A stretch of DNA of 63,837 nucleotides, the filler included, from Atractiella rhizophila (taxonomy: Eukaryota): the NCBI GenBank assembly GCA_021432655.1. It is 4 parts of 4 records of this genome, joined end to end, with 100 filler letters (N's around TTAATTAATTAA, not from the genome) between each part and the next. Parts side by side here need not be neighbours in the genome. Positions count along the whole stretch, not along the records: positions 16,191 to 32,202 come from MU271916.1; 3 more parts are not named here. One strand, written 5' to 3'. The stretch's first letter is position 1. The number at the start of each line of letters is the position of its first letter. The translations under genes and the position numbers were made by a program. Shown here one piece after another: positions 10,101 to 48,462 of the stretch. The notes beneath the pieces are model-generated. The model did no database searches. It worked only from the letters and a program-made list of their open reading frames with translations, and had not been told where the DNA came from.

Positions 10101-13100
10101 TCAGCGAGGGGTGTGCAAAGCTGAGCTGTGAGCATTTTGGCTTGCTATCGGAGGCTGCATTACCATTATTGGAGGGACAATAATCGATGACCTGGTAGGC
10201 GTCTTGCTTCCCTTTTCGCGCCGTGACTTTATGACACCTTTCCAGCGATCCTTAAGCTTCTTGTACAGTGTCTCTTCTGCTTCCTCATCCATTCCATCTA
10301 CCATGCTAAGAGCTTCTCGCTCTTCAGCAAGAGTATTAATACAGACCCCCAATGTGCGAAGTGAGCGATAACTGGCCGTTGCGCCTTTGGTCGCTTGCGT
10401 CGAGAGAGCAATGGAAGAAAGTTGACGGAGTGTGTAAAGAATGACAGATATCTGGTTGAGAGAGATCGGAAGCGGAAGGTCCTCTGGCAAAGTGATGACT
10501 TGCGAACTCGAAGCCCCTTCAGGAGTTGTTCTGGCCTTCCCTTTGCCATTTGACTTCTTATTGGAAGGGATTATGAAATCTGGAGTAAATGCGGTCTGAT
10601 TTGAGGGGAGAATCTTGATGATTAAACGGACGACACCGAGGCCTATCTTGTCCTTTCGGAACTCTAAGACCATCGCAGCTCCTATATGGCATGAGGTTGG
10701 GTTAAAAGAAAACTGGGAAAATCCACCTGCATGACCACTTTCCTCAGCCTGGATATCCTGCTGACCAGCAGTGAACTTACTCTCACCGTGCCTAAAAAAT
10801 GTCATCCTGATATTTACACCATAAGAGAGGAGGAACACGCACCACATGAGAAACCTGAGGAGGCTTGACCAATTATCAGCCTCGATAGCCCAAGTGCTCA
10901 ACTCTCTTTCGCTCTTATTCGATAGTTCCATTGTCCTTGGGAACTGACCGTCCTCTAAGGATGCTGGATTCAACTCAGTTCCAGCTGTATCTCCCCCTGG
11001 CCTTCCGAAGCGGACACCGGTGGCGAAGACAGCGTTCATCGTGCGTTCTCCGTTGGGTAATTCAGTGTTCTCGAGAGATTGTGGGTTGACCATCGGCGGC
11101 GATGGAACAGGTATCTGGTTCAACAGTACCGTAGAGGGTATCGTGGGTGTCGTTGAACGCGAAGGGGGGTCAGGTTGAAAGGCTGTTGGTTGCTGTGGTC
11201 GCGGCGCTGAAAACGTCGGCGATGGTATAGCAGTTGAACCATCAAGAAAGGAAGAACGTCGCGAAGTTGTAGGCTCTGTGACTTCTTCAATAGTGTACAT
11301 AGAAAAGTTGTCGTGAGGTATTTCGGCGTTGACGAAGTCACCCTCTCCTTCCTGTGTAGATGTGGGAGAAGATGGGGCGGGATTGGGGTCATCTGAATTT
11401 GAGGAACCTGAACTGTTGCGAGAGTTCGAAGGCTGCGTGTTTGTTTGAGTGGCACGAAAGGGAGAAGAGGGTTGATCATCAACAGGCGAAGCTATGGCAC
11501 TGGGTGACCTAATCAACGTTGTGGTAGATGATACAAGGCTTGGGGAGCCTGGACGTCTAGCAGTATCCCACTGGTCCCTATTAAGGCTGGACTTTCGCCG
11601 TAAGGAAGAAGGTGATGTTGGAGATTCACGGCGTTCTTCCTGCTTTTCTGAAGGCGATTGGGTGGAGGTCGGAGAAGTCCGTATAGGCGGAGGTTTTGGA
11701 GGAGGTAACTTGGGAGATCGATTTGTTAGATCAGATTTGAGGTCGTTAAGAGGAGATCTGGAACGCATGGCAGGGAGCAGGATGAGAGGTGAAGACCAAG
11801 CTGCCCCGTTCTCTCCGTGGGATGGCTTATGACCGTCAATCCGCTCCACAGCCGAAGTCTCCTTCTCTAACCTCGCTCTCCGTAACCGCTCCTCTTCTCT
11901 ACTTAGTCGTAGAGCTAGTTCAAACGTCTCCTCTTCCTGCCGCGCAACATCGACAGGACTGAAACCATTGTCTAGAGGAGCTGCGCCAGGTGGTAACCAG
12001 CCATGTTGACCTCCCGGATTTGCCCACAGATGACCTGACTTCTCATTTCCAGGTCCGAAGAGAGTTGGTGTCCCCAACAACTGGGAATAGAAGTTAGGTT
12101 GAGCAGATAGAACATAAGTCAGCGGTTGATCTGTTTCCGCACGCGGGGGTGAATGTGGAGGATTTGTATCGTCTTCTTCCTGCATGCCCAAAGAAATGTC
12201 AGCCATAACTATTCCAGTGCCAGTTTATATGATGAGGAATTGGCCACAGTTGCGAATAATGGCATTCTCATGACCGTGGGGGAGATGGTGCAGCGTGTAT
12301 TCCAGAGAAAAAGGCTGGTCAACGCCGTTCAAAGAGCAACCAAAAGATGTTGACGTCCGACTCGTAAGAGATTGACGTACATTCTTCTGTCTATCCTGTC
12401 CCCCTTTCCTACTGTTCTCTGGGAAATGCCGTAGTGTGTCCCGTTCCTCGACTGCAGCTGGCTCCTCCTCTTTCTCCGGCCGTTGCCTCTCCCTCTTCTT
12501 CGTGAACGCAGTTTGCTCCCCTCTCAGCCTACCGACCTGGTCCGCAGGTTCTCCCAGAGTTGCTTTAAATAATCCCAGCTTCGTCAACAGTCGTGAAACC
12601 TCATGAGTCGACAGCGCCGTCGATTCGTTTGCTCCTGCAGAAGCCAAAGGAGCATCAACACCGTTATTCGTTGACTGGTTACTGGAAGACGAAGCCCTGC
12701 GTCTATGACGTCGCTTAAAGAGGGAGGCCAATCCGTTGTAATCTACATCTCTGTCTGATGGCACATTAGTGAGCATTTTGGCTTGCTATCGGAGGCTGCA
12801 TTACCATTATTGGAGGGACAATAATCGATGACCTGGTAGGCGTCTTGCTTCCCTTTTCGCGCCGTGACTTTATGACACCTTTCCAGCGATCCTTAAGCTT
12901 CTTGTACAGTGTCTCTTCTGCTTCCTCATCCATTCCATCTACCATGCTAAGAGCTTCTCGCTCTTCAGCAAGAGTATTAATACAGACCCCCAATGTGCGA
13001 AGTGAGCGATAACTGGCCGTTGCGCCTTTGGTCGCTTGCGTCGAGAGAGCAATGGAAGAAAGTTGACGGAGTGTGTAAAGAATGACAGATATCTGGTTGA

Positions 13101-16090: not shown

Positions 16091-16190
16091 NNNNNNNNNN
16101 NNNNNNNNNNNNNNNNNNNNNNNNNNNNNNNNNNTTAATTAATTAANNNNNNNNNNNNNNNNNNNNNNNNNNNNNNNNNNNNNNNNNNNN
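16091..16190. other. Artificial contig linker (N44-TTAATTAATTAA-N44)
   Basis: Six-frame stop linker flanked by Ns; identical at three places. Confidence 0.98.
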
Positions 16191-16700
16191 TCTAATTGAG
16201 GAGCATAGCTCGAGAGGCAATGTTCCTTACCACTCGGTCATCAGCACTTAAGCTTCGAATCGCTGCTCTTAAATCTCGTCGGTGTAAAGGAGGTCCAGAC
16301 AACAAGGGCCTGTGTCCGGAAATCTTCCTCAATGTTGTCGCAGACAAACTCGCTTATACTGCTGTGATGTTCATCAACATTGAGCTGTTAGCAGAATTCT
16401 TCTATCAAGTCTGTCCTATTTTGAGCCCCGAGTGCTTTCTTGCTAATGCGAATCGTCTAGTTTCCTCGGGAGATTGACAATCGTCTTTCGTACGACCTTG
16501 ACCGGTCAGAAATCAGTAGATTCGCTCGAGAGAATCCCGCGGTGAAGAAGCACCTCGATCTTCAGGAACGGAAAGAAAAACTCGAACTCGTAATGGAGAA
16601 GCTGGACAGTTTAGTCAAGCTACAGGCAGAACAGAAGCATGGGGGTCAAGCACGCCCTTCAGCTCGAGAACGGAAAGGTCTCTTCGGACTATTTTCGTAG
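16191..16700 (+). CDS. MGM1: Mitochondrial dynamin-like GTPase Mgm1/Msp1, C-terminal part (5' truncated by contig end)
   Basis: [14 protein letters not shown]...[32 protein letters not shown], intron, then FPREIDNRL...[28 protein letters not shown]; stop at 16698-16700. Confidence 0.9.
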
Positions 16701-16960
16701 AGACGTCGAAGGTGTCTGTACAATGCTGTTTCGTTCGTCTAGTGAATGTATTTGACGTTCTTGTTTCTAATTTTCACCCTTGATAATTCTTCCAATGTTA
16801 AACGACTAGATAATACCAGTCACACCTACTCTGCCATTGAGGCAATCTGAATGGATAGAATAAATTTCATTCTTGCATCTACCTACAAGGTAGTTAACAC
16901 GTTGGGTATCAGGGACAAAGGAACACCAGATGGCTACATGATACAAGAGTGTTGATGCTG

Positions 16961-18350
16961 CTAGATATTGAACTCATCACCAATGAAGTGGGCAAAGAGT
17001 TTCATCTTCACATCCACATGCATATCAGGGGTCTTGCCAGGGATGTTGTACAGTAACCGGTCCACTCTCTTCCTGCAAGCACAATTAGATGAGAGGGCTC
17101 ACAATATAGGCACATGTGCAGATACTTACCTGATATGTACTCAAGGGTTCTTCTTGTTTCGGGTAACAGGTCATAGACAACCTCCATCTTTGGTGGTGGA
17201 TCTAGAGATGCCAACAAGTATCGACCAGCTTAAAGCCTGATTTGTAACTTGTTGTGACCTTTGACACAGGTACCCTGTACTCATGAGTGCAACTCACGGG
17301 TACCCTTGTATTAACTTAGACTCTACTCATCAACATTGTTGAAGCTATGGTATAAAGGCTTAATCTGCACTGTTGGTAAATGACTGGTCATTCTAGCTCA
17401 ATGGTTAATCCCACGTGGTAGCAAGAGAGTGAGAAATGTACTTTCTACCACTTTGCACTAACAATCCCCAATCACTTATTAGTGAGTGCAAATGATATAA
17501 ATGAATATGTGATTGGGGAGAAAGAAAAGGAAAGAAAACACATCAAGCATACCTATAAGTCCGGACTAGCGGTGAAGTGCACATGTTTGGCACGGCATCC
17601 GGAACGCAATGCAAATAGAACAAACAAGTGACATCCACAGATCTCCAACAAACATAATTTTACAGTTTAGGCACATTAGTTTACATAGATGACTTATTGT
17701 ACATTACTTATGGCTTAAACACCACTATTACTTGTATCTCAGAGTCAGATAAGCCATTTTGAATGTAAAAAAGATCAAAAATTGATATAAAACTCTCTTT
17801 AACTCTTTCAAACAAGTACTCCACGGGTACCTGCCATTTCAGGACATATGCTCATGAGTACTCTTAGGTACGTAGCAGAGAACATGAATGGGTACCCCTG
17901 ATGAAAATTTACCCTCTGTAGCTGATTTGTAACTTGTTGTGCACAGGTCCTGTGGCACAAGTACCCATGAGTACCATACTCATTGACATCTCTAGGCGGA
18001 TCACAGGGGTGAGGGAACATTGGAGGTGACCCTTGTGGAGGAAGTACTGCTGGTATGGAGAGGAGGGTTGGGACGTATGAGGCAATTGGCCATCCCTGGC
18101 TTGCCCACTGAGGCATGTGACAATCCCATACTACAGCACAAGTTACTACTCATCCTGTTACAGAAGCAGTGAGGCACTCATGTTTACTGTTGGCAGCCTG
18201 CATGTTGTGCAAGGTGGCCTCATTGTGGAACATCTTCCATTGGAAGTCGTGAACGGTATCTTGGTGCTGCTCAATTCAGCCTCTGTTCGTTGCATCTCAT
18301 GCTCCCCTGTGCCCTTGCCCACTCCTGTGTTGTATGTGAAAGGCAAACGA
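16961..18350 (-). pseudogene. Degenerate Mug135-like protein gene interrupted by the hAT-type MITE
   Basis: Removing 17203-17994 and one TSD copy joins FPHPCDPP to PKMEVV in frame. C-terminus YNIPGKTPDMHVDVKMKLFAHFIG matches the neighbouring paralog. Stops and frameshifts present; 5' end approximate. Confidence 0.55.
17203..17994. mobile_element. Non-autonomous hAT-type DNA transposon (MITE), 792 bp
   Basis: TIRs TAGAGATGCCAA / TTGACATCTCTA (11/12 match). 8-bp TSD GGTGGATC (17195-17202) / GGCGGATC (17995-18002). Subterminal GGGTACCC-type motifs and a repeated TGATTTGTAACTTGTTGTG. Confidence 0.9.
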
Positions 18351-18475
18351 AAACAAAGTGAGAAACCTTATGGGCAGGCTAGGATTGTGGCAAGGTGCTA
18401 AAGTTTAAAACAACACCACAGCTTGGAACCAATGACGGAAAAGAAAACCACCACATTGCACCACACCCAGTCACG

Positions 18476-19138
18476 ATGGAACCACCGATGGCCAACCTCA
18501 GAGTCAACTTGAGAGCCGCATCGAGGACTTTCCTAAATATTTCAGAGAATCTGGAAAACTTGTACGAACACTTTGACAACCGACCAACTTGGGCCCACAA
18601 TCAGCAACAATTGCTACAGCAAATCCAGGCAGATCAACAACGAGCATTGCACCATCTCAATTGGGCCAAATACCTGAGGAAAATTGAAATGTACAACCTG
18701 AAGGTTGCACAGCAACAAGTGTAAGTACTTCTTTTCCATGTGAGCCATGGTGAATGATAACTGGAACCATTGTCAGGGCTGAATGGTCCATTGCTTGAGT
18801 CCATAACTCCAATGTTGACCTCCATACGACACCACTGACCCAACTCAATATCAAGAGGAAGTGGCTCCACCTATCCCAGCCTTCTTGCCTGGGGTAGCTC
18901 CACCCATCCCTCCTCCCTTCAACCCCCCTCCTTTAAATGCAGCATCTTACAACCTTTGGGTCAGGTTAGAAACCTCTCTGGTAAGTGTGCTCTAGAATCA
19001 GACCCCATGCTTAGTTGCATTACAGTTGAAGCCATGAATGAGTTGATTGCGGCGTATGGTATTCAAGTACCAGCTCGCCAAATGACGGTACAGGACAAAC
19101 AACGTCTCTTCAGCCACTTCATTGGTGCGAAGTATTGA
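18476..19138 (+). pseudogene. Mug135-like coiled-coil protein gene with an in-frame stop
   Basis: Q-rich coiled coil; two introns; SIA*VHNS with TGA at 18796-18798 where Arg is expected; C-terminus LIAAYGI...KQRLFSHFIG. Family call from motif memory. Confidence 0.55.
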
Positions 19139-20445
19139 GTCACTCCTTTTGAATCATGAATCCATTACAAGGTGTTATACTGTATTCTGTATCTGTTTCA
19201 CAATTCTTAGCCAGAGTTCACAATATCTTATCATCTATTCCTCTAAGATTCATCAGTTCTTGGTGTGAGTCATAAAACGCACTTTTGAGCCTTCATACCT
19301 CTCTCACCAGGCACATTGAAATGAAATGAAGTACACCATCTTACTGCATATGTTTGCGCCTTTCTGAAAGTGCAAGGAAATTTTATTTTAAAGTTATGAA
19401 AAAAAGGGTTTCCTCCTGGATTTGAACCAGTGAAGAGGCCCACAAAGCTGATAATGCCGTGCGCAGCAGCCCCACAAATTTCATGCTGTGCTGGAAGCGC
19501 CTTACGCAATTTCTACAGCGCGTTTTGGGTTTTTTCAGGTTGTGTGCCAGAAGAACATGTTTGCCTACCATGAGGGGAAGAAAGTGAGCACATGTGAGTT
19601 GGAATATACTCCTTTACATTATGTTCTCATGCCATCTTAGAATCATCATGCCCCATCCTAAGAAAAAGAAACTAACGCATCCATGCTCAGCAACAAAGGT
19701 GGGAGGAGAGCCCATCAGATACACCTCAGGTTGCTCCACGTCACTCAGAAAGACGTCATGCGGGATTGCCGCAGGTTACACAACCGACACCACCTCAGCA
19801 TTTGACCTGTCAAATTCGTATGCAGCAACAGCAGGAGGATGAACCTCCTAGAGAACACTGATGCTGACAGCAGCTAGAACCTCCATCTTTACGTGAAGAA
19901 TTCAATGACAGTTCCTCTGATGGACAATAAGAGGGAGTATTTGAGAATACTGATCTGCCTGATCAAACAGTGGTAGCTCCTTGGGATACAAGACGAAATC
20001 AGCATCCTTTTCTCGCATTCAACTATGTAGCAGACACAGTGGAGGCAATCCGACTTTCGGGCTAGAATGAATCCTTTTGCTCAGAATGTAGTCCCTTTCA
20101 TTGGCTGGCTTGAGGAATGGATAGCCAGGAGCTCTAAACGGAATCCTTATGTCCTTTGTTGGTTTACAGCTCATATCAATGTGGAACTCTGCATCTCCAT
20201 CAAATATGTCAAATACCTGTTCAAATGCATCTACAAAGGAAATGATCAGGCACAAGCTATCCTTCATAGCACCCGAGGTGATGATAGGGTGGTGGATATG
20301 TTGAGACTAGGATTCTTCCTATCACACTGGGAAGCGTGAAGGGAAAAAAACCTTGTGAGGGGGGTATATGTGTATTTTACATTGCGGGGCATTGCGGGGC
20401 ATTCATGTGACCATAATTGTCACTGTTTGTCGCTTATCTCCAACA

Positions 20446-20457
20446 CTCCCACTCGAC
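20446..20457 (-). promoter_or_regulatory. Polypurine tract of the Copia element
   Basis: Minus strand TCGAGTGGGGAG directly abuts the 3' LTR TG. Confidence 0.85.
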
Positions 20458-20507
20458 AAAACAGTGATGCTGAAATCGCAAAATCAAAAACTCGTAAAAA
20501 TCAAAAA

Positions 20508-23500
20508 CTAAGAAGTTGTTCTCCCACTCGATGAAGCAGTGCTTGGTTTTGACACCAAAGATAGTAAACTGCAGAGATATTCGTGTTTCCCTTTTTCTAA
20601 TGGTTTCGTGAAGATGTCTGCAATCATTTCTGTTGTGGGGCAGTATCTGAAATCGAGGATATTGTTCGCTTGTGCCTCTCTGATCCAAAATAACTTGATG
20701 TCCACATGCTTCATTCGTGAAAAATGTTCTGGGTCGTGTGCATTTTCAAGAGCTGCTTTGTTATCGTTAAATATTGGTAGTGCCCGTTCTTGCTTTCTTC
20801 CCATTTCTTCAAATAAACTCCGATACCAAACTCCTTCTACTCCACCATGTGTCATCGCTAAGAACTCGGCATTTCCTGTGGAGAGTGCTACTCCATCTTG
20901 CCGTTTGCTACTCCAACTGATCGGTCCTTTGCCTAAGAAGAAGGCAAAACCCGACGTTGATCGTCGCGTGTCTAAGTCTCCGGCATAATCCGCATCTGTG
21001 TATCCGCAGAAAAACGGACGGGAGTCCCCTTCACTTTGTAGGCCATATTCCAAACAATAATGTTTCGTGGTTCGCAGGTAACGTAAAACTCTCTTGACTG
21101 CCTCCCAATGCTTCGGCCCTGGATTAGAAGAAAATTTCCCAAGGTGACCCACAACCCAAGCTATGTCAGGGCGCGTTGCAATAGCAAGATAGATTAAGCT
21201 TCCTATCGCATTTAGATATGGGACCTTTTTCATATATTCAATCTCTTCCAGTGTGTTTGGGCAATCTGCTTTTGAGAGCATGTTCCCTGAGTCGTAAGGA
21301 GTGGAGACTGGACGACCTTCATCTGTCATATTGTACCGCTTCAGCACTGCATCAAGATATCGATGTTGATGCAGGTACAGTCGACGATTTGGACGATCTC
21401 TGGCTATCTCAATTCCAAGGTAAAGGCTGGCATCACCATTTTCAACCATTCGATAACGAGTGTGGAGCTTCTGTTTGACACGATCCATTATAGCTCGGTC
21501 ATTTGAAGCAAGAAGAAAGTCATCAATATGTACTGGTGTTATAACGAATTTTCCGTTCTTTTCCCAGACATAGATTGAATGATCACTTTTACACCTCTTG
21601 AAACCATCCTCAACAAGTGTTTTATCAAGGTCTCTGTTCCAGCAACGTGCTGATTGATGAAGGCCATAAAGTGACTTCTTCAATTTCAACACCATGCCTT
21701 CGGGAACATCTAGACCAGGAGGAGGTTCCATAAAGACTTCTTCTTCTAGATCACTGTTTAGGAAAGCAGTGACCGCATCCATTGTCTCACACTCGAGATC
21801 TTCAATGGCTACCAGGGACAAAATGGCACGGATGGCTGCCAATCGTGCTGTTGGTGCAAAGACTTTATCGTAGTCTATTCCAGGGATTTGACTGTACCCT
21901 AGTGCCACAACACGAGCCTTAGGCTTTGTCCCCCCCTCAGGTAGTATCTTGTCAGAATACACCCATCTGCTACCAACAACCGACTTTTGCTTTGGTCGAG
22001 GATGCAGTTCCCACGTTTGGTTCCGCTCATGAGATGCTAGTTCTATGTCCATGGCTCCCACCCATTTAGGGTCTTTGGCAGCTTTGATATAAGAGGATGG
22101 AACAGTAGCATTCATGGCCCAGTGCAACAGCTTCTCTCCTGCAGCTGAATCACCAGCTTGCATAGCCACCTCAATGTTGTGTTGCGTAGAACCATCATAG
22201 CTTAGCCTGCGAACAGGTTGACGCTGTCTTTGGGGCCTTACTGCAACTTGAGGTTCATCTCTATCTCGCTCTAGAGTATTGGCTATGGGGAACTCTTCTT
22301 GTGGCAAGAGGGTAGGAATTGATCTAGATGTTTGATCTTCATCTTCGTCCTGGGCAAGTTCAACAGGCTTGCCTTTAGACAGATCAGGGACATCCGCCGT
22401 TGGAGATGTTTGTTCAGGAGCTATGGATCTACGATTCGAATACTCATCGAAGATCACATCACGACTGACTATCACCTTCTGGTTATCTGGATTCCAGAAT
22501 CTCCATGCTTTTACACCTTCTTCATATCCCAGGAAAATGCATTTTGCAGTCTTTGACTCAAACGGACGTCTATCCTTCTTGGGAATAAGAACATAGGCAG
22601 TGCATCCAAAAACTCGGAGGTGTGATACTGAAGGTTTCCTCTTGAAGAGCACTTCGTATGGTGTAGTTGTATCCATCAATGCCCGTGTTGGCAGTCTTCG
22701 GATAACATGAACAAGAGTAGCAAGTGCTTCACCCCAAAAGCTTGGTGGTAGACTAGACTCTGAGAGCATTGAAGTGATTCGTTCTTCAAGAGTTCGATTG
22801 ATACGTTCAGCAACACCATTCTGTTGAGGAGATGCTGTAGCAGTCTGCTGACGAATGATTCCGGATTCTTTGAGAAATGCGTCAAATTCGAGGGAGGAGT
22901 ATTCTCCCCCTGCATCATCTCTGATTTTCTTAAGCTGCTGTCCAGTCTGCTTCTCTGCCATCGTCTTGAAGTCACGAAAAGCTTGATATGCTTCGCTTTT
23001 CTTTCGGAGAAGGTATACCCATGGGTATCGGGAATGGTCATCTACAAAGGTCATCCAATATCGAAATCCCCTTGCAGTCCTAACCGGCATAGGTCCCTTT
23101 AAATCGGTATGCACAAGCTCAAGAACTTGTGAGCTCCTGCTGGTAGATAATTTGGGAAATGGATGGCGATGTTGTTTTCCTTTGATGCAACTTTCACACA
23201 TCTCAGGAAATCCTGTTTTGCTATCCATGCGCATATCTTTAACCAGATCCTTTTGTATAACCAGATCCAGTCGATCTTTCCCTATGTGACAGAGACGGCG
23301 ATGCCATAGGTCCAAGTCGTGAGTATGACATGACTGAGCCTTAGCTTCTGTACGTGCGAGACTTAGGAACTGAGTGTTAACCTCTGTTATTCCGTCCAAA
23401 GTGGCAACCTTGTCCTCTATTGTTGCTGTGAATCGAATCTTTCCCTTTTTCGAGAACTTTTATAAAGTTCTCACGGATAACAATTACGTATTGTTTTTAG

Positions 23501-24733
23501 GGAGAAGACTGAGAGGAGATTTGATTTCAACTTCGGAACGTAGAGAACATTTCTGATAACTATTGGCTTTGTAGGTTTTTTGTTTGAACGGAAATATATC
23601 GATCCTTTTCCTTCGGAGTAGATGATGGTTCCATCTGCAAGTTCGATCGGAATGCGATGGTTCTGGTAATCATTCTGAATCCAATGGCGATGAGGCGTCA
23701 TAGGAGCTGTGGCTCCAGTGTCTACCGTCCATCTTACATCAGCCTTCTCCATCGCTCCATTCGCAAGCAATGCTCGTACTCTGGCAGTCTTTCCAGCCTT
23801 CACCACCTTCAATTTTTCTTTATTTTCTTCCTCGGAGTCACCAGATGATGGTTCCTCCTTTGAGCCACTAGCAACCTTTGCCTTTGCCATCCTTTTTCTT
23901 ATCCTCTCGTTCCTTTTTGAAGGTATCTTGGGCCTTCTTTCTGAAACGACACTCTGCCTCGGTATGATTATTGTATCCACAGAATGTGCAACTGAGGCTT
24001 GAAGGAGGTTTATTCGATATAGTCGTAGGCAGCTTCTTCGAGGATGGTTGGACACGCATAGCTATTTCTGACTTCGCTTCTGACCTCTTCTTTTCTCCTT
24101 CCTCTTTCCTAAATGCATCTTCCACCTCTGCGATCGTAAGGTCTTCGGAACTGATTCGGAGAGTTGTAAGAAGGACTTGATATTCATCGTATGGAAGGGA
24201 ACGGAGGAGTGTCATGATCGCAAGTTCGTTATCCATCTTTGCCAAGGTATAACCAGTTGGACGAAGCTTTTGAATGAGACTGATTTGTTCGTTGACTTTC
24301 GTAATGAGTTGTTCCATTGACATCTCTGCCGTCTTGCGTCTTGCGAATATCGAGAAGATCATCAAAAGCATTGAATCGAGCATTGCGTTCAGGCTTGACA
24401 TGGATTTCTTTTAGCTTTTCCCAAACAAGCTTCGGATCCGTGATGTCAGTGATATGGTGTCGCTGACTATTCTCAATCGAAAGACGTAGATATCCCATAG
24501 CTGCTTCTTTTCGCTCATCCCAATCTGTCTGTCTCTTCTCCACTTCAAGTTGCTTCTGATAATCGATACTCGTAGGTTTCTCAGGAAGAGAATGGTCTAC
24601 AGGACGAGTTTCTGTCCCAAGAATGATTCTCCCTGCTCGTTTCGTCTGGAGGAAGGGCAAAGATTTCTTCGGACCATATTGCGTAGTTTGTATCATTGAG
24701 TTTTTCAGAGACGAAAGTGGAAGCGTAAGACAT
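20508..24733 (-). CDS. Copia gag-pol polyprotein; IN-RT-RNaseH part is open (963 aa), gag/protease part is frameshifted
   Basis: KLNDTNYAIW (gag), CTFCGYNNHTEAEC (zinc knuckle), VDTGAT (protease), LWHRRLCH...CESC, VHTDL, QQNGVAER (integrase), KARVVALG, KSLYGLHQS, HIDDFL (RT), YTDADYAGD...ADIFTKPL (RNase H). Confidence 0.93.
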
Positions 24734-25226
24734 CTTGAGACTAATCTGCGGTTTATTGATAGGTTGTTTGGAATGAGATATACAGTTTGTAACCAAACTT
24801 AACAAGAACTCCAAAGTTGAGGGTTACTGCACTATTATAGGATGATTGACGTCCTTGCTATGTGATAAAGCAGTCTAAAAGACTGTCTGACAATATCACA
24901 AGGGCGTACTGTAAAACAGAGGTCCCAAGAAGAAGGCCTATGGACTTCTTCCGTGACTTGGTACGTTGCCTGGTGTAGAGACTTGTTTACAGTTTCCAAA
25001 TGCAGCACTCCAACACAACTCCTTTATCCTTATCAAGATTTGATCACTCACTGTTGATAGTACCTTCAGCTCCTAGTCAGAATACGCCGATCCTGCTAGT
25101 CTAGGGTATGCACCGATCCCCTGCTGAAAATAATCTAATCTCCAACCCCTGCTCCTTGTTGATAGGGTCCAAAGTCTGTTGTTAGGTGCGGGTGCGAGAT
25201 AAGGGTTTTCTCCCGGCTAGAGTGTT

Positions 25227-25238
25227 GGGCTCATAACC
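25227..25238 (-). promoter_or_regulatory. Primer binding site complementary to the anticodon arm of initiator tRNA-Met (half-tRNA priming, copia/Ty5 type)
   Basis: Minus strand GGTTATGAGCCC immediately follows the 5' LTR CA; it is the complement of GGGCUCAUAACC. Confidence 0.9.
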
Positions 25239-28168
25239 TGTTGAGACTAGGATTCTTCCTATCACACTGGGAAGCGTGAATTGCAGAAGAAACTCACCTA
25301 GGATTCTTCCTATCACACTGGGAAGCGTGAAGGGAAAAAATCCTTGTGAGGGGGGTATATGTGTATTTTACATTGCGGGGCATTGCGGGGCATTCATGTG
25401 ACCATAATTGTCACTGTTTGTCGCTTATCTCCAACAGGATGAGATTCAAGGGTGCTTGGATGCTAGATTCATTGGATCTTCTGAAGGTAAGTGTTTAGAA
25501 CTACTCTGAGATGATGTTAGGGCTTATTTGATACAATTTTACAGCCTATTACCGGATTTTCCACTTTACTTTACACCAGCATTTTCCTGTGGTTATTCAC
25601 TTAGCAGTACACCTTCCTGATCGGCATTCTGTGACCTTTAATCCTCATTACTGGAGACCATACATATCCTAAGGCTCCTCAATTCCTTACCTGGAAGTCA
25701 GGCTCAAGCTCTTAGAAAATCCTGGAGAAACAAGAAGCTGTCGGCTATATGTACTATGTTGCGCTGTCACAAGGGGAGTTATTCCATCTCCGAATGCTTC
25801 TGCATCAGGTTGCCAGTCCGAAATCTTTTGAGGATATCTGAACAGTAGAGGGAACTGTCTATGAGACGTTAAGGCTACATGCGTGGCTCTTGGGCTATTA
25901 GAAAGTGATGAAGATGGGATTATTGTCTCAATGAAGCCAGCACCGTCAAGAATGGCTTTGCAATGTGATCTCTGTTTGTCTACATCCTGCTATTCAGAGT
26001 CACCAGCGAACCCAGAAGATTATGGGACAGCCATCATGAGCAACTCAGTAACGATTGTAAACACCTTCTATGGACAAAATATGGTGTACATGATCCAATG
26101 AATGAGCAAATTATCAGCCTCTGTCTCCTCGAAATTGAAGATCTCTTCCAGGCTCATGGTAAATCCCTTAGTGACTTTGGACTCGCAGAGCGACCACAAA
26201 GATGGGAGGCAAGATAAGGATTATTGGGAAGAACTTGCATATGATCGACCACTACTTCATGCACATATTCAGACAGAGTTACCGTTATTAAATCTGGACC
26301 AACGTCATCCTTATGACACAGTTGTAGAAGCATGGCAAAGTGAAAATGGTGGATTATATTTTATTGATGGGCCAGGAGGGACTGGAAAGACTTTTGTTGA
26401 AAACCTATTACTTGCATGGTGCGTTCAGTGGGGAAAATTGCGCTGGCAGTGGCCTCTCCCGGTATTGCCGCTATTCTCTGGAAAGTGGACGAGCAGCCCA
26501 TACTCGCTTCTGGATCCCATTGGACATTGAAGCTGATTCTGTCTGCGGTGTTACGGCTCAAAGTGATCACAGCCGACTTTGTCGAGACGCAGAATTGATA
26601 ATTTGGGACGAAGTGGGAATGAGTAACAGTAAATATGCGCCTGCTCCGTCGTCGGGCCGAATTGAGTAGCTGAGACTTTGCTATTGCCTCTGGCTTTGCT
26701 GAATGGTTGTTGTCAGTTGGTATTGGCACTACAGATAACCTGGAAGACTGTAGCCGTGGTCCATTGACTATGAAGGACCAAACAATAGTCCGGCAACCCC
26801 GTGGTCTGGACGGTCTCCTGACTGACATATACCCCGGACTGAGCACCATAACGCAAGATGTCAACCCAGTCGAGTTGAGGCAATACTTTCAAGAGCGCAG
26901 GTCGTTACGGCCCGGAATGTTGATGTTGACATGATAAACGATCAGCTTATTCAACAATTTGTCTCCCGACAGGAACATATCTACCTTAGTGCTGACCGCT
27001 TAATGGATAACAGTGAGAACATTCAACAAGGCTTCACAGTTGAATACCTCAATACTCGCGATATGATGGGTCTCCTTCTTCGTCGTCTTCATCTCAAAGT
27101 TGGAGCCCCTATCATTCTAATATGAAACCTCAATCCTTCAGCTGGGCTCTGTAATGGTACACGGTTGATCATCACCCAGCTGCTCTCCAGTGTCATTGAG
27201 GCTACCATCATTACAGGCGGATTCACAGGTACCTCAGTCCTCATCCCACGCATTGCATTGGATAGCAAGGTCTCCAATTCATTCCCGTTTACCTTATGCC
27301 AGTTTCAATTCCCTGTCAAATTGGCTTTCTGTCTCACCATCAACAAGTCACAAGGCCAGTCAGTGGAGACTGTTGGATTGTATTTGGATACACCAGCTTT
27401 TGCACATGGACAACTTTATGTAGGAATTTCTAGAGTTTCGAACGCTAAGAATCTTCGAGTTTATTTACACCAAGTGCAAGGGATAGAGAATAAGACGACA
27501 GAAAATATAGTGTACAGAGAAGTTTTGAATTTTCACAATTCGATGCATGTAGACCTATAATGAAATCATATAGATTCATACCAAACCCCATGTCCATATG
27601 TGCTCACCGAAGGCGAGGCCCCATGCAGTGGCCACCTGAGGCTGGAGTCCAAGGCATGAAGCCCCTGGCAGGGGGGATGCCCGAGGGACAAGGGCACTGA
27701 CACACTTGTGTATCCTGATTCATTACACAATTCTTAACCAGACTCCTGACTCATTGTCAATATGAATTACCACGAGAATGTCAATACAATTTATCATTAC
27801 TAGTGAGACTGCATTTGGTGAATGCTGTGCATGACACGCAGGACTTTGAGGTGCATGAAAAGGGTAAAAGTCTGATAACTCTGTTTTACTCCAACATCTT
27901 GGTTCTTGGTAATATAGTGTGCATTTTACATAATGCGATACAGCTAACGAGTTAAGATGAGCACGGGAAATGAGCGTAGTTACAGTTACAAGAATGTGCA
28001 GAATACTGCAGATAGGGTATAGTAGGTTGCTGCACTGAAGCACGGCTGGATGGTTTTGACAAGGCTAGAATAAGCAAAATGTGTATCGACCATCAGGGCC
28101 ACAAAGGAACTTGAGTACACAACACGAATTTGGATCGAGAGGCGGCGGCACACCAGGAGCCCATCAGG

Positions 28169-30576
28169 TCAGATCCCTGATGGACCTGAAGGACCAAATG
28201 TATTGTGCGTGAGGCTTGTGAGGACGGATGCATCGGAAGTGAAGCTCGCCGTTTTCTTGATGCTGAAATCATGATTGAGGCGCGATCTTAAGAAAGGGTA
28301 GTTTTTGCTTACCTGGACCCTCTTCTACCCACATCCGTCTCGTGACTCGCAGCAGTAAAGAACGAAGCATCACTCGCCTTCTGCTCAATTATTTCGTCAG
28401 CGAGAGGGCGGGTGAATGGAACAACCACATACCCGACCATAGTCAGTCGGTCCAAAGCTGAAGGAAGAGTAACGCTTCTCTTCCTGTTCTTCCAGGATCG
28501 GCGACGGTACTGGACTTGGATGAGAAGCTTGCGACTTCCGCTTGAAAGATTTGAGCGACTTGAGAGATTCGACGGAAGGTCGTAAGTCGAGAAAAGATCC
28601 ACGAAAAGCTGGCGGGATGGCGGGGACACGAGGACGGGAAGAGACCTCGCTCCCACTCGCACTGTCGAAATGCAAGAAAGGGGCATCGACATTAACTGCA
28701 TGCTCCAGATCTAGTGAAGGAGGTTTGGAGTTTACTGGAGTGTCGAGGGATGGGCTCTGAGATGTTCCATTCTGAGAGCAGGTCGTTTCTGACCACTTGG
28801 ACCTGGGTACCACTTCGTGCTCATGTGTCGTGACGGACCATTTGCTGCTGAGCACAAATTCTGGAGGTGGTGCGGCGTCGTGAAGAGAAGGTGTAGATAC
28901 CGACCATTTGCTGCTGAGCACTTGCTCTGGAGGCGGACGGAATGTGGGTACACTGTCCAATCGTAGCTGATCAGCAGATAGAGAGTTTGAACGACCATCA
29001 AAGATGGGGTGGGTGATCGTGCTCGTACTCGCTCTTGCCGCTGGCTCGGGCATTAATTCCTCTCGAGTAGAAACTGCTCGTTGAGAACGCCCCTCTGTGG
29101 GCATGGATGATGGCGACTTGCTTCTACTTTCATTGATTTCCGCAATTGGCGTCAGAGGGGTTTGAGAATCTCCTGTGCCTGGTCGAGATCTGCTCTTCTG
29201 CATCGAAGGCGCTTTCGAACCCGGGGGCAGATAGCTGGTGATTCCTAATCCCATACCAAAATTTTCGCTTTGGGGGTATCCGTTGTTGGGCCAACGAGCT
29301 GATCCTGGACTGCGCTGCTTCGTCAGCGTATATCCAGTCGAATCTCTTTGTTTCGAGAGCGAGTATCCAGTTCTAGAAGCCACAAGCGTTGAAATCGAAT
29401 TCGTACCCCACGGCGAATAATCTTCGGTGCGCATCAGCTCAGCCGCAGAGCGTGGATCGGGAGACACGTGGGTGTGATGATGGTGATGGCTGGGCTCCGC
29501 ACGGGAAGTAACGAGGTAGTAGAGGAGAGTGATCGAATAACCTGTGCATTGGTCAATTGCCGTCACAGTATAACTGACGAAAGAGCCGGCTTGCATTTTG
29601 ATAAGAAGACGAGGGGGAAATATCCCCACATTGGTGACATATGCGAGGATAATTCGATAATCCAAACCGTACCAGCAAATATTTGAACCTGGAGAAAGTC
29701 AACAAAGGTAGCTGTGCCGACTGAAGACGAACACCAAGGATCAAGACCCCACTCTCCACCACCAGAAGAAGCAATCGATTGACGATTTTGGCGGTTTCGG
29801 CGTTTCTGTCTCGAATAGACTTCTTTGTCGTGTACAGCTCATAGATTAGGAGAATGCTGAGGACGACATCGATTTTGGCGGAAGATATGAGCCAAATCCT
29901 GGAAAACAGTCGAAACAGGTGTCCATGTCCCATCCTCCCTGTCCCAGGATCCGGAAGGCTCAATTCACGGATGTCCTTGACAATCTGGGTTCCACGGAGT
30001 GGTTAGCCTCATATAACTTTGCAAAAGGACTTAAGACACATACGGCGACCTGAGCGGAAGTTACACAACCTGCGGCGAGAGCTTCGACAATGAAGAATAG
30101 CTCGAGTGCAAGGACAGTCCGGAGGATCCACGTCTTCCGTAAGCGAGCAAAGAGAAAAGAACGTTGGAGGAGGAATAGTTGGCAGGCGGCTTGGATGAAG
30201 GCGATAAGGAAGGAAGATATGGCGTCCTCTGGTCGGCTTTGGAACGTTGCATCGAGATCCCCATACGCTACCGAAACCCTTGCACGTTTGACTATTTCAC
30301 ATACTGTCTGGATGATTTCGAGGGCGACGACAGAGGTAACGAAGACTCGTAACCACAAGTTGTTCTCTCGAGGATACAAGTGGTAGAATCGAGTTAAGAG
30401 AGGGAAGAGGAATCCGAGCAGAATGCAAGAGACAAAAGTTCCCAGGAGGGGAGGCAAGCAGACATTGCTACCAACCTATCAATGCGCTTGAGCAGTCAGT
30501 CAACTCGTCCTCAGCACAGACAGAAGCGAATCGAAAGGCTCACGGAGGCATCGGTCACCGTCGCGGTGGTGGCCAT
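28169..30576 (-). CDS. Multi-pass membrane protein (DUF6534-like) with a long Ser/Pro-rich cytoplasmic tail; multi-exon
   Basis: PLLGTFVSCILLG...FYHLYPRE...LRVFV, IQAACQLFLLQR, IWLISSAKIDVVLS, IVNRLLLLVVESG: the pattern of basidiomycete 7TM-like DUF6534 proteins. Confidence 0.7.
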
Positions 30577-32202
30577 AGGTTGGAGCACCAAAGTGGTGAA
30601 AGTGTAACTGGAGATGCTAGATGTTATGTCGTAACCACAGAACCAACAATGCACAGTCTTCAAAATATTGCAGGCAAGGGACCAAAACGAGAGACGCAAA
30701 GGGATGATACTTGGAGAAACTGGTCACTTTTAACACTCCAAAGCCGACGTAGCTTTGCTTTAACGCGATCGGAAATTAATCAAGTGGACATCCAATCAAC
30801 TGTGATTGTGCTCGATTTTGTTGCTTGAAACTTCTGGAAATGAGATTTTCAGGAATAGGCGCACCCGAGCTTATGGCTTCGGAACACTTTCTAGTCGATT
30901 CCATCATCCTGGTTGGAGGAACAAGTGGTGCGCCTGATTCCGTCTTTTTGTTGTGCACCACACGAACATTTGAGGACTAGGACGGATAAGCGCTTGCAGG
31001 GCTCAGAAGGAGCGCATGACGGGGCAACAAAAGAGAATGTCAAATGTTGCTCAGGTGGCTGCGTGCGGCTGGGGGAACGTTTGAACGGCCGCAAGACTCC
31101 GCTAGCATCGTGATTACACCGTGACCACGTACAATCTCCTCTCGGGTGAACTGAAAATGTAACCTCATGGCACGACATCCAAGGAGAGACTTGCAAAACC
31201 CAATTTTCTCTGAGTTTGCCTTCTCTCCTGAAAAGGGTGGGAAGTCTAAGACCGGTAAGGTCAATCTTCCCTCCCCCACACCACACTCACTTAGATTCTA
31301 GGAGTAGTAAGTTAGAGGGAACTTTGACACCTCAACGAGTATAAAGCGAGGGCATGTCGAAAGCTTGACAGGCTGAAAGGATAGACTGTTGAAATGCAGA
31401 AGGTGATAAGTTCTCACACGCCGGGTTGCCAGTCTGACGTCGCAGTATTAGCCCATGACACTCATGACACTATTGCAAGACATCGAGAACAAAAGGGAAT
31501 GCAAAGAGGGTTAGGCCGATACATCGATGTCCATGATATCAGGAAAAGAGGCTTTCATGCCCCGCAGAAGAGCTCGTTCTTGCAGTCGATGCTGCTGGAA
31601 TTGAGATTGGTTCAAATCTATCATTGAGAAATCTCGAGTCGCAAACCTTTATACCTACTAATTAGCAGTGTGCCGTTCAGGAGAAGAACTCACCTCGGTC
31701 ACAAGTCACTTGTGTCATGCACTAGGCAAACCTGATAACGAATTCAGGCTGCACACCGAGAATGGTTTCACATTATGGCATCACCCCACTCATTAGTTGA
31801 GAGACTGTTGTCTCTCGCTTTGGGATTAAAAAGTGGTTCTTCGAGAACCACGGATCGAAAGTCGAAAAAAGGTATGTAAGATTAGTGAAAAAATGATGGC
31901 AAATCGTGATGCTAAGCAGTAATACACATACAAGAGAGCGCAATATCACTGGAAATCAAGGAATGGATGACGACGGTTCGACTGCACATCTAGAAGGCAA
32001 ATCGCAAGGAAAGGGCAAAAGAAATGAGAGACTAGAAATGACGAAGGTAAGCCAAAGTTTTGCAACGGAACCAACTTCACGGAACCAAACTGACTGAAAG
32101 GGCGATGGAACAAAAGAGAAGGAAGGAATTCAAGTCATCCTGTTTCTAGCCTCTCCAGACTCGACGAATCCTTTCCACTCTGTTCTCCACTCGTCCATCT
32201 TC

Positions 32203-32302
32203 NNNNNNNNNNNNNNNNNNNNNNNNNNNNNNNNNNNNNNNNNNNNTTAATTAATTAANNNNNNNNNNNNNNNNNNNNNNNNNNNNNNNNNNNNNNNNNN
32301 NN
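32203..32302. other. Artificial contig linker
   Basis: N44-TTAATTAATTAA-N44. Confidence 0.98.
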
Positions 32303-38757: not shown

Positions 38758-38917
38758 ATCCTCTTATCCCAACAGTGTATCAGGTATCCGAAAATCATAG
38801 AAAGTATTCAGCGATGCTGGAGCTGGAAGTTGAGAATGAAATTGAACACAAAGGGAATTTGGTCCTTGGGTGCTTACCATTTTTCAAGGCATGCTTTTCG
38901 TTGGAAAAACAGTACTT

Positions 38918-39172
38918 TAGGGTTCAACCCTGCCTCTGTCAGCAACAGGATCCTGGCTGAATTCTTGCCTCCTAGCCGCCCAGGGTACAACCCTGCTGCT
39001 GTCAGGATCCTGGCTGAATCCTTGCTCCTGGGTCCCCAGGGTACAACCCTGCCACTGTCAGGAACAAGATCCTGGCTGAATCCTTGCCGCTGCCCCGGGT
39101 ACAACCCTGACTCTGTCCAGAACAGGATCCTGGCAACATCCTTACCTCCTAGGCACCCAGGGCATGACCCTA
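38918..39172. repeat. Minisatellite, ~4.3 units of 56-63 bp with internal palindromes
   Basis: Units start at ~38918, 38981, 39037, 39095 and 39158; they carry CAGGGTACAACCCTG and CAGGATCCTG or close variants. Confidence 0.88.
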
Positions 39173-40439
39173 CTTCCAATAAAAGCAGCATTGTGACGAA
39201 AATGTTGGCTGTCAGCCAACCAGAGTAGAACCTTGCCATAGATAAGAACTCGAATACAGTTAAAATGTCATGTACTCATAAACACTGGTAGGCACAGGCA
39301 ATGTCCTCTCTAAGACACATCTCAAATCACTTATCCGTTGAAATCCATGTGTATTAGACTACCCTGGTTCATATTCAGTATATATTGGCAAGTAAATAGG
39401 GTACATTCAAAGTTGCAAAAATTAATTTATGACAGTTGAGGTATGTGGCATCTAGAACATTTTATCATATGAAGCGTATAAAGTTGGAGAATCTCTGTAG
39501 TGGTCATATATCATTCATACATAAATTGCATATATAAATGAACATTGTCTCCACATTCTCATTAGCTACTTTTGGTGAAAACCTACTGGGGAAGTTTTGA
39601 ACGAAATTGCACTTTCCACACCCCTCTGTACCTGTGTCGATAACCTATTGGCTGGGACATTTTGAAGGAAATTGCACTTTCTTCACCATTTACCCTCTTT
39701 TCTGCAATGTTTCTGATGCCCCTCTATATACTCTATATGTCGTCGATGCACGACATTCTTCGCCATCATCCCAAATCCCTTTCCATCACAAAGCACCTGC
39801 TTGCCTTTCTGATGTTTGGTCCAATAGCTCATCCCTGAGTACTTACCATACATCTGGCTTACCACCTTTGTATCTGTTTGTTGTCATCCTACATGACCAC
39901 ATCTGTGGTAACAGGACACATTGTATCGAATAGATTGATCACTCTTCGAACCGATCATCCCACATGGCTTGCATTGTAACCTTGATACACAAAAGTTATA
40001 ATAGACCCCTCGCCTACACTTGTTCCCCAGACAGATTGTCACCCAAAGCATTGATCCAGAACATATCAAACACCCAAGCGTTAAACCCCCTATTAACATA
40101 TCAAATCTACAAACAATCGTAATGGCTTTTGTTACAGCTGCGTTTCCTTCTCACTCTGTTTCATTTGGACCCGGATTGGCTTTCAGTCCCCAATTGGCTC
40201 ACAAGATCAACTTCTGCCTCAAGGCAGATGTGGTGAGACCTGCCATTATCAAGTTTGCAGCCATCCACGTGAACTCAAAAGTAGAACTCCTAGCCCTCTA
40301 ATGCCCCAGTGATCAGCATGCTGATTCAGATATAGGATAAGCTCAGTCTGGCCTGGCTAAGAAAAGGATGCCCCATACAAAGCCCATCTCCAAGCTTTGG
40401 GCATTCAGACCATGTGACTATGTGATCAGTACTAATCCT

Positions 40440-42362: not shown

Positions 42363-42781
42363 TGTCAGGTTTGCATCTTACGCAAATCGGCGCCCGTTCA
42401 CCGGATTGCGTCTCCTATCGCCTATTTGCGTTCCCTGCGAATCCGCACCCCGTTGCCACTCTGCGTTCGCCCGTTCGCCCATTTGCACCTACATCACCAC
42501 TTAGCCCAATTGTGCCTATACTCCTCTTATTAACTCCGCGTAATCCCACTGTCACTTCCCCTTTTAGTTCTCTTACATGTTTCATCTGCTCTCCTCTACG
42601 CTCTGTGGCAGTGTTATTCCGCTTGTATATATAGATCAGAGAGTAGTGGAGGTGACCTTAGAGTATTCTCTTAGGTTTATCTCCACTACAGGTTAGTCTT
42701 CATGTCATATCATGCACTTAGGTTTATCTCCACTACAGACGCATCGCCCATCGGCGACCACACATAGTGTCAGCCCTAACA
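42363..42781 (+). mobile_element. Solo LTR, 419 bp, unrelated in sequence to the Copia LTRs
   Basis: TGTCAGG...CCCTAACA termini; perfect 5-bp TSD ACCCC (42358-42362 / 42782-42786); TATA-like TATATATA near 42626. Confidence 0.88.
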
Positions 42782-43164: not shown

Positions 43165-44732
43165 TCATTCTACAAACAGAAACTGCCCCGATAATGCCCC
43201 GATGACAATCATTAGGATGACAGCATACTTGTGGTTAGCCTTGTAAAGTGCAACAAGAGTGACTAGATAGAGCACAGCCGCTGTGGCATCGTAGGACAGC
43301 ATGCGAGCGGTGTCGTCTGCCGTTGATCCTTGCCGCGGTATGGCACCAACACAGGCTTTAAGAAATTGAAGAGCAGTGATAGCTATAACCCCTACTACCG
43401 CCCCACCGATCCCGTCAAAGAAAGCGGATAAAAACTGTCAATCTGTAAGCATGGGCTACACAGGTTGCGGATAAATGGTTACCTTGTTGCGACATAGTCT
43501 TTCGAGCAAATCATGACCCGCTATGGTAAAGAGAAAACATGGGAAGAACATGCCAAGGGTGATGACAGTTGCACCTGAAAAGCCGTATCCAACACCTCGC
43601 AGCGTTTTTCCACCTTGAAATCCGACAAATGTCGCAAAAATGACCAAAGGGGCAGGAATGATATTTCCAATTGCAATACCATCGAGGAAGACGCTCTGGG
43701 GTAGCCATGCACCACGGAGGACAGCTTCGGCTTGAATAAACGGAATAGCAGTGTATGCACCTCCAAATGACAAGCTTCCGGCAATAAGCCCAAGAGCGAA
43801 AAGGTGGACTGTATCCGGAATTCGAGCAACGCCAACAGCGAGAGCAACAGGGGTTGGGACGCCTTTGAAAACGACATAGACGGCATAAACAACATATTGA
43901 AGAATGAACAGTCCCGCGGCCAGAACGTAATAACGGCGGGTGACAACCATATTGAAAATGCCGTAGAAAGAAAGGGAAATGAGCCTATATCGATATTGTG
44001 AGAACTTGCATCCGTAATCATACCATACACACTTACCAGTTGATGCGAAGAGCACTGTTCAATGTTGTGAAGAGTGCGTAACTCAGAAACCAAAGACTGA
44101 ATCTTCCTGATCGTTGGCTTCGGAGGGTATGCTCGGCAATCTTATGCGTCGCACGAACAATCTGAAGCAGATATCACCACAAAATAAAGACGGGACGAAT
44201 AACACACCATCGCCCCAACCATAGGTTGAAGTGCTCGGAAAGATGCAGAGACATATCTGTTACTAAAGCCACCCAAGGCGTAGAGATAGCTCGCGAGAAG
44301 CATGAGTAAGAAGCCAGGAAGGATAAATCCAACGCCAGCCGCGATGCCGCCTAGACGTCCTCCAGCTAAACAGCCAAAGAACATACACAGTTCAGCAGCC
44401 TCGGGGCCAGGGAGCATCTGATAGACGGCAAATACACGGTTGAAGCGCGCGACGCTGATCCATTTTTCCTGAATGACCAGCTGTTCCTTGATCAGGGCTA
44501 TTTGCGCGACCGGCCCCCCCCAAGCAAAGATTCCGAAGCGCGAAAAGAAGAGCCAGAAGATGCGCCAGACAGTCAGTCGAGGAACATTAGAGTTGTCATC
44601 GAGAGGGTGTGATTCTGAACGCTCTTGGCTCGTCTTGTCGTCGATAATGGCGTTTGGACTGTCAATCGCCGCTACTGACGCCTCGGCGGAGTGCTGGACC
44701 TCAGGCTGCGCTTCGACGTGCGTCAACGACAT
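43165..44732 (-). CDS. Chromate ion transporter (CHR family, two-domain)
   Basis: FGIFAWGGPVAQIALIKE, YQMLPGPEAAE, GFILPGF; second repeat GSLSFGGAYTAIPFI, GNIIPAPLVIFATFVG. Confidence 0.92.
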
Positions 44733-44935
44733 TTCTTTCCCCACTGGCTTCAACCGCACACACAAAGTTGGTACTTTATCTTCTTATATCATCTTAAGTG
44801 GATCAATGTCGCCATCAACCAATTCAGGTGACTCGGTACGGATGTCGCCACTCGACCATTTGGTCTTTGGTCTTTTTGTTCTCAGAACAGTCGGGAGCAA
44901 AGATCCGACAAGGTGCCGTAGTGTTATAAACATAA

Positions 44936-48267: not shown

Positions 48268-48367
48268 NNNNNNNNNNNNNNNNNNNNNNNNNNNNNNNNN
48301 NNNNNNNNNNNTTAATTAATTAANNNNNNNNNNNNNNNNNNNNNNNNNNNNNNNNNNNNNNNNNNNN
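48268..48367. other. Artificial contig linker
   Basis: N44-TTAATTAATTAA-N44. Confidence 0.98.
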
Positions 48368-48462
48368 CCTAACCCTAACCCTAACCCTAACCCTAACCCT
48401 AACCCTAACCCTAACCCTAACCCTAACCCTAACCCTAACCCTAACCCTAACCCTAACCCTAA
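48368..48462 (+). repeat. Telomeric repeat (CCCTAA)n, ~16 units, at contig start
   Basis: Perfect CCCTAA array in the orientation expected at a left chromosome end. Confidence 0.96.

Follow-up and report, generated by a model that had tools for sequence, protein, structure and literature searches.

An intron-like module bounded by an exact repeat in two unrelated long terminal repeats of Atractiella rhizophila

The copia element and its unequal LTRs

The window analysed here, a stretch of 63,837 nucleotides from Atractiella rhizophila (assembly GCA_021432655.1), consists of four pieces, each about 16 kb long, which were put end to end through runs of N around TTAATTAATTAA (16091–16190, 32203–32302 and 48268–48367); because the joints are artificial, no feature is read across them. 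One piece (16191–32202) contains, on the minus strand, a Ty1/copia long terminal repeat (LTR) retrotransposon of 5138 bp (20299–25436), identified from its LTR pair and Pfam domains and present as a single copy within the window by BLAST self-comparison, whose 5′ LTR carries the intron-like segment considered in this report. Pfam recovered Retrotran_gag_2, Pol_BBD, gag_pre-integrs (residues 25–76), rve (92–190), SH3_retrovirus and RVT_2 (460–701), which places integrase ahead of reverse transcriptase, as in Ty1/copia. The pol frame is open and the gag region is frame-broken. The LTR ends (TGTTG..CAACA) and the 5-bp target-site duplication are those expected of Ty1/copia, the left copy of the duplication reading GGATA (20294–20298, plus strand) and the right copy GGATG (25437–25441), with one mismatch between them. 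A primer-binding site, GGTTATGAGCCCAAC (25224–25238, minus strand), directly follows the 5′ LTR, and we take it to match the anticodon stem-loop of initiator tRNA-Met, the inner part of that tRNA being the copia type of primer; tRNA genes in the window numbered zero. A purine-rich tract, GTCGAGTGGGAG (20446–20457, minus strand), adjoins the 3′ LTR.

The two LTRs, both TG..CA and both on the minus strand, differ in length. The 5′ LTR (25239–25436) has 198 bp and two copies of a 34-nt unit, here called X, and the 3′ LTR (20299–20445) has 147 bp with a single X and, in an arm of its U3 (unique 3′) region, one substitution private to it. Aligned end to end, they are separated by that substitution and a single gap of 51 columns (BLAST: 139 nt at 99.3% and 42 nt at 100%), so that the first-pass annotation was right both in placing a 51-nt insert with a 34-nt direct repeat at 25247–25331 and in holding that the 3′ LTR lacks it exactly. 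Read in element sense, the 5′ LTR presents in turn a TATA-like box, GTAAAATACACATATAC (25355–25371), presumably the promoter; an arm of U3, CTCACAAGGATTTTTTCC (25333–25350), defined by predicted folding; the first copy, X1 (25298–25331), which begins about 28 nt past the TATA core, ends in TAG at the donor, and may be both first exon and R (the repeat at the RNA ends); a 17-nt spacer (25281–25297) running from a GTGAGT donor (25297–25292) to a GCAA end; the second copy, X2 (25247–25280), identical to X1 at 34/34 positions, with its last AG the putative acceptor; and the last 8 nt of the LTR, TCTCAACA (25239–25246), a putative U5 (unique 5′ region). The putative intron is the spacer plus X2, 51 nt in all. 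A perfect repeat of 34 nt lies well beyond chance expectation, and the earlier description of the insert's borders as intron-like holds, the donor being of host consensus and the acceptor AG, as in short fungal introns (GTGAGT...TAG). Two smaller features lie nearby: a 10-nt unit, GCAATGCCCC, in tandem twice in U3 (25376–25395, element sense), just 5′ of the TATA-like box in both LTRs, and a second GTGAGT (25047–25052, element sense) in the leader, 500 nt long, that separates the primer-binding site from the start of gag; this GTGAGT may mark a further leader intron.

The difference between the LTRs carries less information than it might seem to. Since the insert consists of the spacer and X2, its removal gives the same sequence as the collapse of X1 onto X2. 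That the 3′ LTR equals the spliced form, as had been proposed, is true of the sequence and is not diagnostic, repeat collapse yielding an identical product; the caveat to that effect attached to the original proposal was well placed. In canonical LTR reverse transcription, moreover, both LTRs derive from one template, the minus strand of the 3′ LTR serving for synthesis of the 5′ LTR. On that scheme a 3′ LTR with one X has no means of yielding a 5′ LTR with two and with a new spacer between them; with one template for both LTRs, the element must have been born with two copies, and the 3′ LTR lost a unit later. The idea that a cycle of splicing and regeneration produced the asymmetry is therefore contradicted by the canonical scheme, which needs a later loss from the 3′ LTR. 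The asymmetry is ordinary secondary repeat collapse in the 3′ LTR and gives no evidence of splicing. The unit was presumably lost either by a slip of reverse transcriptase in the last plus-strand (second-strand) synthesis, followed by repair, or by slippage in host replication. Relative to most or all contigs of the family, the copy in the window has 1, 7, 1 and 1 extra letters at 23893, 24330–24336, 24655 and 24913, the first of them in a run of T, the second in a tandem repeat of 7 nt and the third in a run of G; these slippage-type changes (23893, 24330, 24655), together with the broken gag, agree with the picture of collapse. With its gag frame broken the window copy is defective, and the family consensus may be intact. 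Reverse transcriptases are described, in the available parts of two reports, as readily deleting between direct repeats (PMC3678115, PMC3187697).

The same layout in a second, unrelated LTR

The layout recurs elsewhere in the window. A scan of the whole window, on both strands, for every exact direct repeat 12 nt or longer whose copies start 30–120 nt apart returned 13 pairs, several of them within a 57–63-nt satellite at 38906–39247. GT immediately after the first copy combined with a terminal AG was found in only two of the 13 pairs, both of which lie in LTRs, and in 0/11 of the others in either orientation. Repeats at 28825 and 39589, considered as further modules, were rejected, having neither donor nor acceptor.

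The second pair lies in a solo LTR of 419 bp on the plus strand (42363–42781), with TG..CA ends and a perfect 5-bp target duplication, ACCCC. Its TATA box (42625–42635) is followed by the left arm of a predicted fold (42643–42662), a 22-nt X1 ending in CAG (42670–42691), a GTTAGT donor (42692–42697) that opens a 25-nt spacer running to 42716, and an X2 (42717–42738) that matches X1 at 22/22 positions, likewise ends in CAG and is followed by 43 nt to the LTR end, all on the plus strand. The putative intron is here 47 nt (GTTAGT...CAG). The solo and copia LTRs share no sequence similarity by BLAST, and in both the repeat starts about 28–43 nt past the TATA box and ends exactly at the donor. Host introns in the window are of similar size: a gene at 43456–44765 has two, of 46 and 52 nt, deduced from frame continuity, and their removal leaves one frame of 403 codons. 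The earlier remark that the insert resembles host introns in size is borne out to the extent that these two deduced introns allow (51 nt, and 47 nt in the solo LTR, against 46 and 52 nt).

The spacers bear on how the repeats arose. In the copia LTR the spacer matches the 17 nt before X1 at 5/17 positions and the 17 nt after X2 at 2/17; in the solo LTR the corresponding figures are 10/25 and 4/25. Slippage repeats a contiguous block, so that a spacer unlike either flank is not the product of tandem block duplication, and in neither LTR does the spacer itself belong to a repeated block. To judge from these comparisons, a spacer unrelated to its flanks argues for an origin by template switch and against simple slippage. 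Nor does the layout correspond to what is known as the Rogers model, in which an intron arises when part of an exon containing AGGT is duplicated in tandem: both copies would then read AG|GT, and X2 is followed by TCTC in the copia LTR and by ACGC in the solo LTR, not by GT. Both spacers end in GCA or GCAA, ends that look cleavage-site-like. A search of the window for the origin of the copia spacer gave one match with 3 mismatches, which is at chance level (two or more matches in 5/100 shuffles).

Origin, working and rival explanations

We tentatively read the 51 nt of the copia LTR as part of a leader module, composed of TATA box, U3 arm, X1 (exon 1 and R), donor, spacer, X2 (with the acceptor), a short U5 and the primer-binding site, and would give this reading slightly less than an even chance. 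The layout is not random, it recurs between unrelated LTRs, and reverse transcription of spliced RNA accounts for it best. In the origin we propose, strong-stop minus-strand cDNA made from a spliced 5′ end, and consisting of U5 and X1, would have been joined to an RNA whose 3′ end lay within the former intron; the product, written into the LTR, would read X1, spacer, a copy of X1, and U5. One such event would give a copy of X alone, a spacer starting with the donor, and a right border of X coinciding with the end of the exon, and the same event would set the left border of X at the expected RNA start, 28–43 nt past the TATA box, and leave the spacer ending in GCA or GCAA. That unrelated LTR families of A. 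rhizophila each gained in this way a copy of R ending the leader intron, born when strong-stop cDNA of spliced RNA was joined to RNA polyadenylated inside the intron, and so came to use spliced RNA as template without loss of the intron, is possible, though we would sooner expect otherwise.

Once in place, a second R downstream of the spacer would put the intron in territory that is inherited from the 3′ LTR, as U3 is. Complementary DNA from spliced RNA would anneal to X2 together with the 8-nt U5, where it has 42 nt of homology as compared with 34 nt at X1, and the subsequent copying of spacer, X1 and U3 would rebuild the full LTR, while cDNA from unspliced RNA would anneal in register. Such a cycle would require that transcription begin at X1, that the RNA be spliced at its 5′ end yet keep the 3′ LTR unspliced, and that its 3′ end lie beyond most of X2. 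Splicing today with rebuilding in each cycle would be a plausible mechanism. A possible selective motive for keeping an intron in the LTR is that introns boost, or are needed for, good expression in basidiomycetes, as stated for Cryptococcus, Armillaria and Ganoderma in the accessible portions of three reports (PMC3744415, PMC4935854, PMC8379801).

Predicted RNA folding speaks differently in the two LTRs. In the solo LTR, X1 is the right arm of a hairpin of some 20 bp (predicted z −4.0), and in the ensemble its unpaired probability is 0.15 with U3 present and 0.63 for an RNA beginning at the loop, that of X2 being 0.67 in both cases; the donor is unpaired at 0.53 versus 0.43, so that X1 is masked and the donor is not. 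The copia LTR piece also folds strongly (predicted z −5.4, 0/200 shuffles equal), and its lowest-energy fold has the U3 arm paired to the 3′ portion of X1, and the CUCAC of U3 to the donor's GUGAG. Gating of X1 by a U3 hairpin is, in these models, supported in the solo LTR and unsupported in the copia LTR.

The forms taken by the copia family were followed through contigs of four DNA runs compared with the window. The family is highly repeated: in two DNA runs of one sample, word depth is about 1000–2000 within the element and reaches 9571 and 23031 in the LTR. Among the contigs listed, those over 25278/25279 start at the LTR edge in 4/4 and 6/6 cases (depth 2280 and 4011), continue for 40 letters or more, and show A,C in place of the window's G,A. 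The one-copy form appears, among those listed, in one contig of one run, which joins 25280 to 25333, skipping 52 letters, at a depth of 75.9, compared with about 4011 at a neighbouring place in the same run. These data lean towards a two-copy LTR as the norm of the copia family, and towards most copies having an exact repeat of 31 nt that starts at the A after the C.

Several results weigh against the proposal that the LTR intron is spliced and rebuilt. The family census above, drawn from the contigs listed, is an indirect one, and contigs built on 31-letter words cannot phase a 34-nt repeat. What the census hints at is that one-copy LTRs are few, although many would be expected were annealing at X1 common, and this fits a segment that is never spliced equally well. 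In the copia LTR the predicted ensemble gives no separation between X1 and X2 (unpaired probability 0.28 and 0.31), and the donor is not freed at the 5′ end (0.17 with U3 and 0.23 without). The caveats first entered against splicing were sound: the only branch-point candidates in the copia insert are GTGAT, 15 nt ahead of the AG, and TTCAC, and two AGs intervene between candidate and proposed acceptor. One of the deduced host introns likewise has only GTGAT as a branch point. If the poly(A) site lies at the end of the spacer, X2 would be left off the RNA 3′ end and regeneration would fail, leaving only the proposed origin standing. Finally, the module is not found in the relative that could be inspected for it. 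A protein-guided scan of metagenome contigs gave six loci related to pol (32–45% identity), of which only one, L001, reaches a putative LTR; this LTR, of about 100 nt, adjoins GGTTATGGGCCC, the same type of word as the primer-binding site in the window, and has neither donor nor repeat. Given this distant relative without it, the module looks like an add-on of particular families. A 28-nt word of X, scanned against metagenomes, gave 0 matches, and viral contigs yielded 0 relatives.

Of the rival explanations the one that fares best, unlikely but deserving to be taken seriously, is that X is a structural repeat only, a hairpin-forming leader unit concerned with packaging, dimerisation or strand transfer, which is present in one or two copies and changes in number by collapse, the GT and AG being incidental and the segment never spliced. 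X indeed folds on itself and with its neighbours, the sole variation seen is the gain or loss of exactly one unit, and the ease with which reverse transcriptases delete between direct repeats, as set out in the available text of PMC3678115 and PMC3187697, supplies the collapse; the weak branch point and the lack of a predicted switch in accessibility between the 5′ and 3′ ends of the copia LTR are likewise as this explanation would have them. It offers, however, no account of why donor and AG mark the borders in two unrelated LTRs and in 0/11 other repeats, of a spacer unlike both flanks, or of two putative introns both of host-intron size.

An improbable alternative supposes a switch like that of foamy viruses, in which the donor would serve mainly as a site for the U1 small nuclear ribonucleoprotein (snRNP) that suppresses premature polyadenylation in the 5′ LTR, a fold of U3 would mask the donor in the 3′ LTR, and X2 would be the relic of one aberrant strand transfer with no continuing role. 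The pairing of U3 CUCAC with the donor GUGAG in the lowest-energy copia fold is what such a switch would use, but over the ensemble the donor is paired nearly equally with and without U3 (unpaired 0.17 versus 0.23), and the idea provides no reason for a perfect, AG-ending exon copy in two unrelated LTRs (34/34 and 22/22).

Far less probable still is intron gain at the level of DNA, by repair of a staggered break in the LTR with filler DNA, which would leave long border repeats without any reverse transcription. Direct repeats at intron borders are described in the accessible part of PMC11782384, and the order of repeat, filler and repeat agrees, but repeats of 22–34 nt are long for such repair, and the pattern was seen only in LTRs, directly after a TATA box, and not in any host gene of the window. 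That the assembler collapsed or expanded one LTR is very improbable, for although the window copy differs from the majority of contigs by 1-nt homopolymer changes of the kind seen in noisy assemblies, one DNA run of what is likely the source sample has a contig of the joined form (the 31-letter-word contigs being unable to phase the 34-nt repeat) and the flanks, the target duplication and the remainder of both LTRs are coherent.

Known systems and other features of the window

Elements copied through RNA are expected to shed their introns, and the leader module, were it to work as proposed, would be a natural solution to that rule in a host in which introns raise expression. Several known systems share part of the logic. 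In engineered split-intron retroviral vectors, duplication of the LTR rebuilds an intron in the provirus; the likeness lies in an intron re-formed by the U3/R/U5 copying logic, but these vectors are man-made, the halves of the intron lie in different parts of the vector, and no duplicated R stands downstream of it. RNAs of Ty1/copia elements are spliced in Drosophila copia and in Arabidopsis EVD, so that copia-type elements do use the host spliceosome; there, however, the intron is internal, its removal taking out pol to give a gag mRNA, only the unspliced RNA is copied, and there is no intron internal to the LTR. Intron retention in Penelope-like elements was reportedly described by Arkhipova et al. 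in 2003.

Penelope-like elements resemble the present case in being retroelements that keep a spliceosomal intron despite copying through RNA, but they belong to a different class, have no LTRs of copia type and use target-primed synthesis, and in the covered portion of the report consulted no exon-repeat layout is mentioned (PMC4209133). In the foamy virus LTR, according to the available parts of one paper (Schrom et al. 2013, PMC3694450), a major splice donor sits within the LTR and the RNA folds differently in the 5′ LTR from in the 3′ LTR. The copia LTR likewise has its putative donor within the LTR, past the presumed start, and a U3 segment of it may be able to pair with the donor region only where U3 is transcribed. 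In foamy viruses the acceptor lies far outside the LTR and there is no exon copy, whereas in the copia LTR the whole putative intron lies inside, together with its acceptor, and ends in an exon copy. Template-switch deletion between repeats by reverse transcriptase, as described in the accessible sections of PMC3678115 and PMC3187697, accounts for the exact 51-nt loss in the 3′ LTR but leaves unexplained the origin of the repeat and the coincidence of its borders with splice signals. A full-text literature search, with subscription journals outside its coverage, returned no description of an LTR-internal intron ending in an exon copy. If the leader module is what we suggest, the layout of the LTR permits splicing and yet inheritance of the intron, a new twist on the U3-R-U5 copying logic that would explain how elements thrive in intron-dependent hosts, and an exon copy at the end of an intron would be a searchable signature, in other genomes, of past reverse transcription of spliced RNA.

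The copia element is itself inserted in another repeated element, which is frame-broken and encodes a PIF1-like helicase (20031–20298 and 25437–27560; Pfam PIF1, Pif1_2B). The open frame flanking the copia element continues across the insertion site, and Pfam returned no family for the 52- and 89-residue flank pieces or for four neighbouring frames. The PIF1-encoding element appears Helitron-like, its Rep part being without Pfam confirmation, and its contig depth is likewise very high. A 151-letter contig from a rhizosphere metagenome (X3) equals 25362–25512 with zero differences and spans the junction of 5′ LTR and flank, indicating that the identical insertion is present in an environmental sample. 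The distant relative L001 shares the word ATGGTCACATG with the LTR in the window (719–830 and 1700–2700 of that locus), and a hAT-like frame is apparently inserted in it between the primer-binding site and gag.

Elsewhere in the window, the stretches 10128–10427 and 12769–13068 are 100% identical and lie 2641 bp apart; as a candidate LTR pair they were rejected, the identity extending beyond the 300 nt and LTR features being absent, and they resemble a segmental duplication. The satellite-like array at 38906–39247 has about six units of 56–63 nt, and a telomere-type CCCTAA array occupies the start of the fourth piece (48368–48462).

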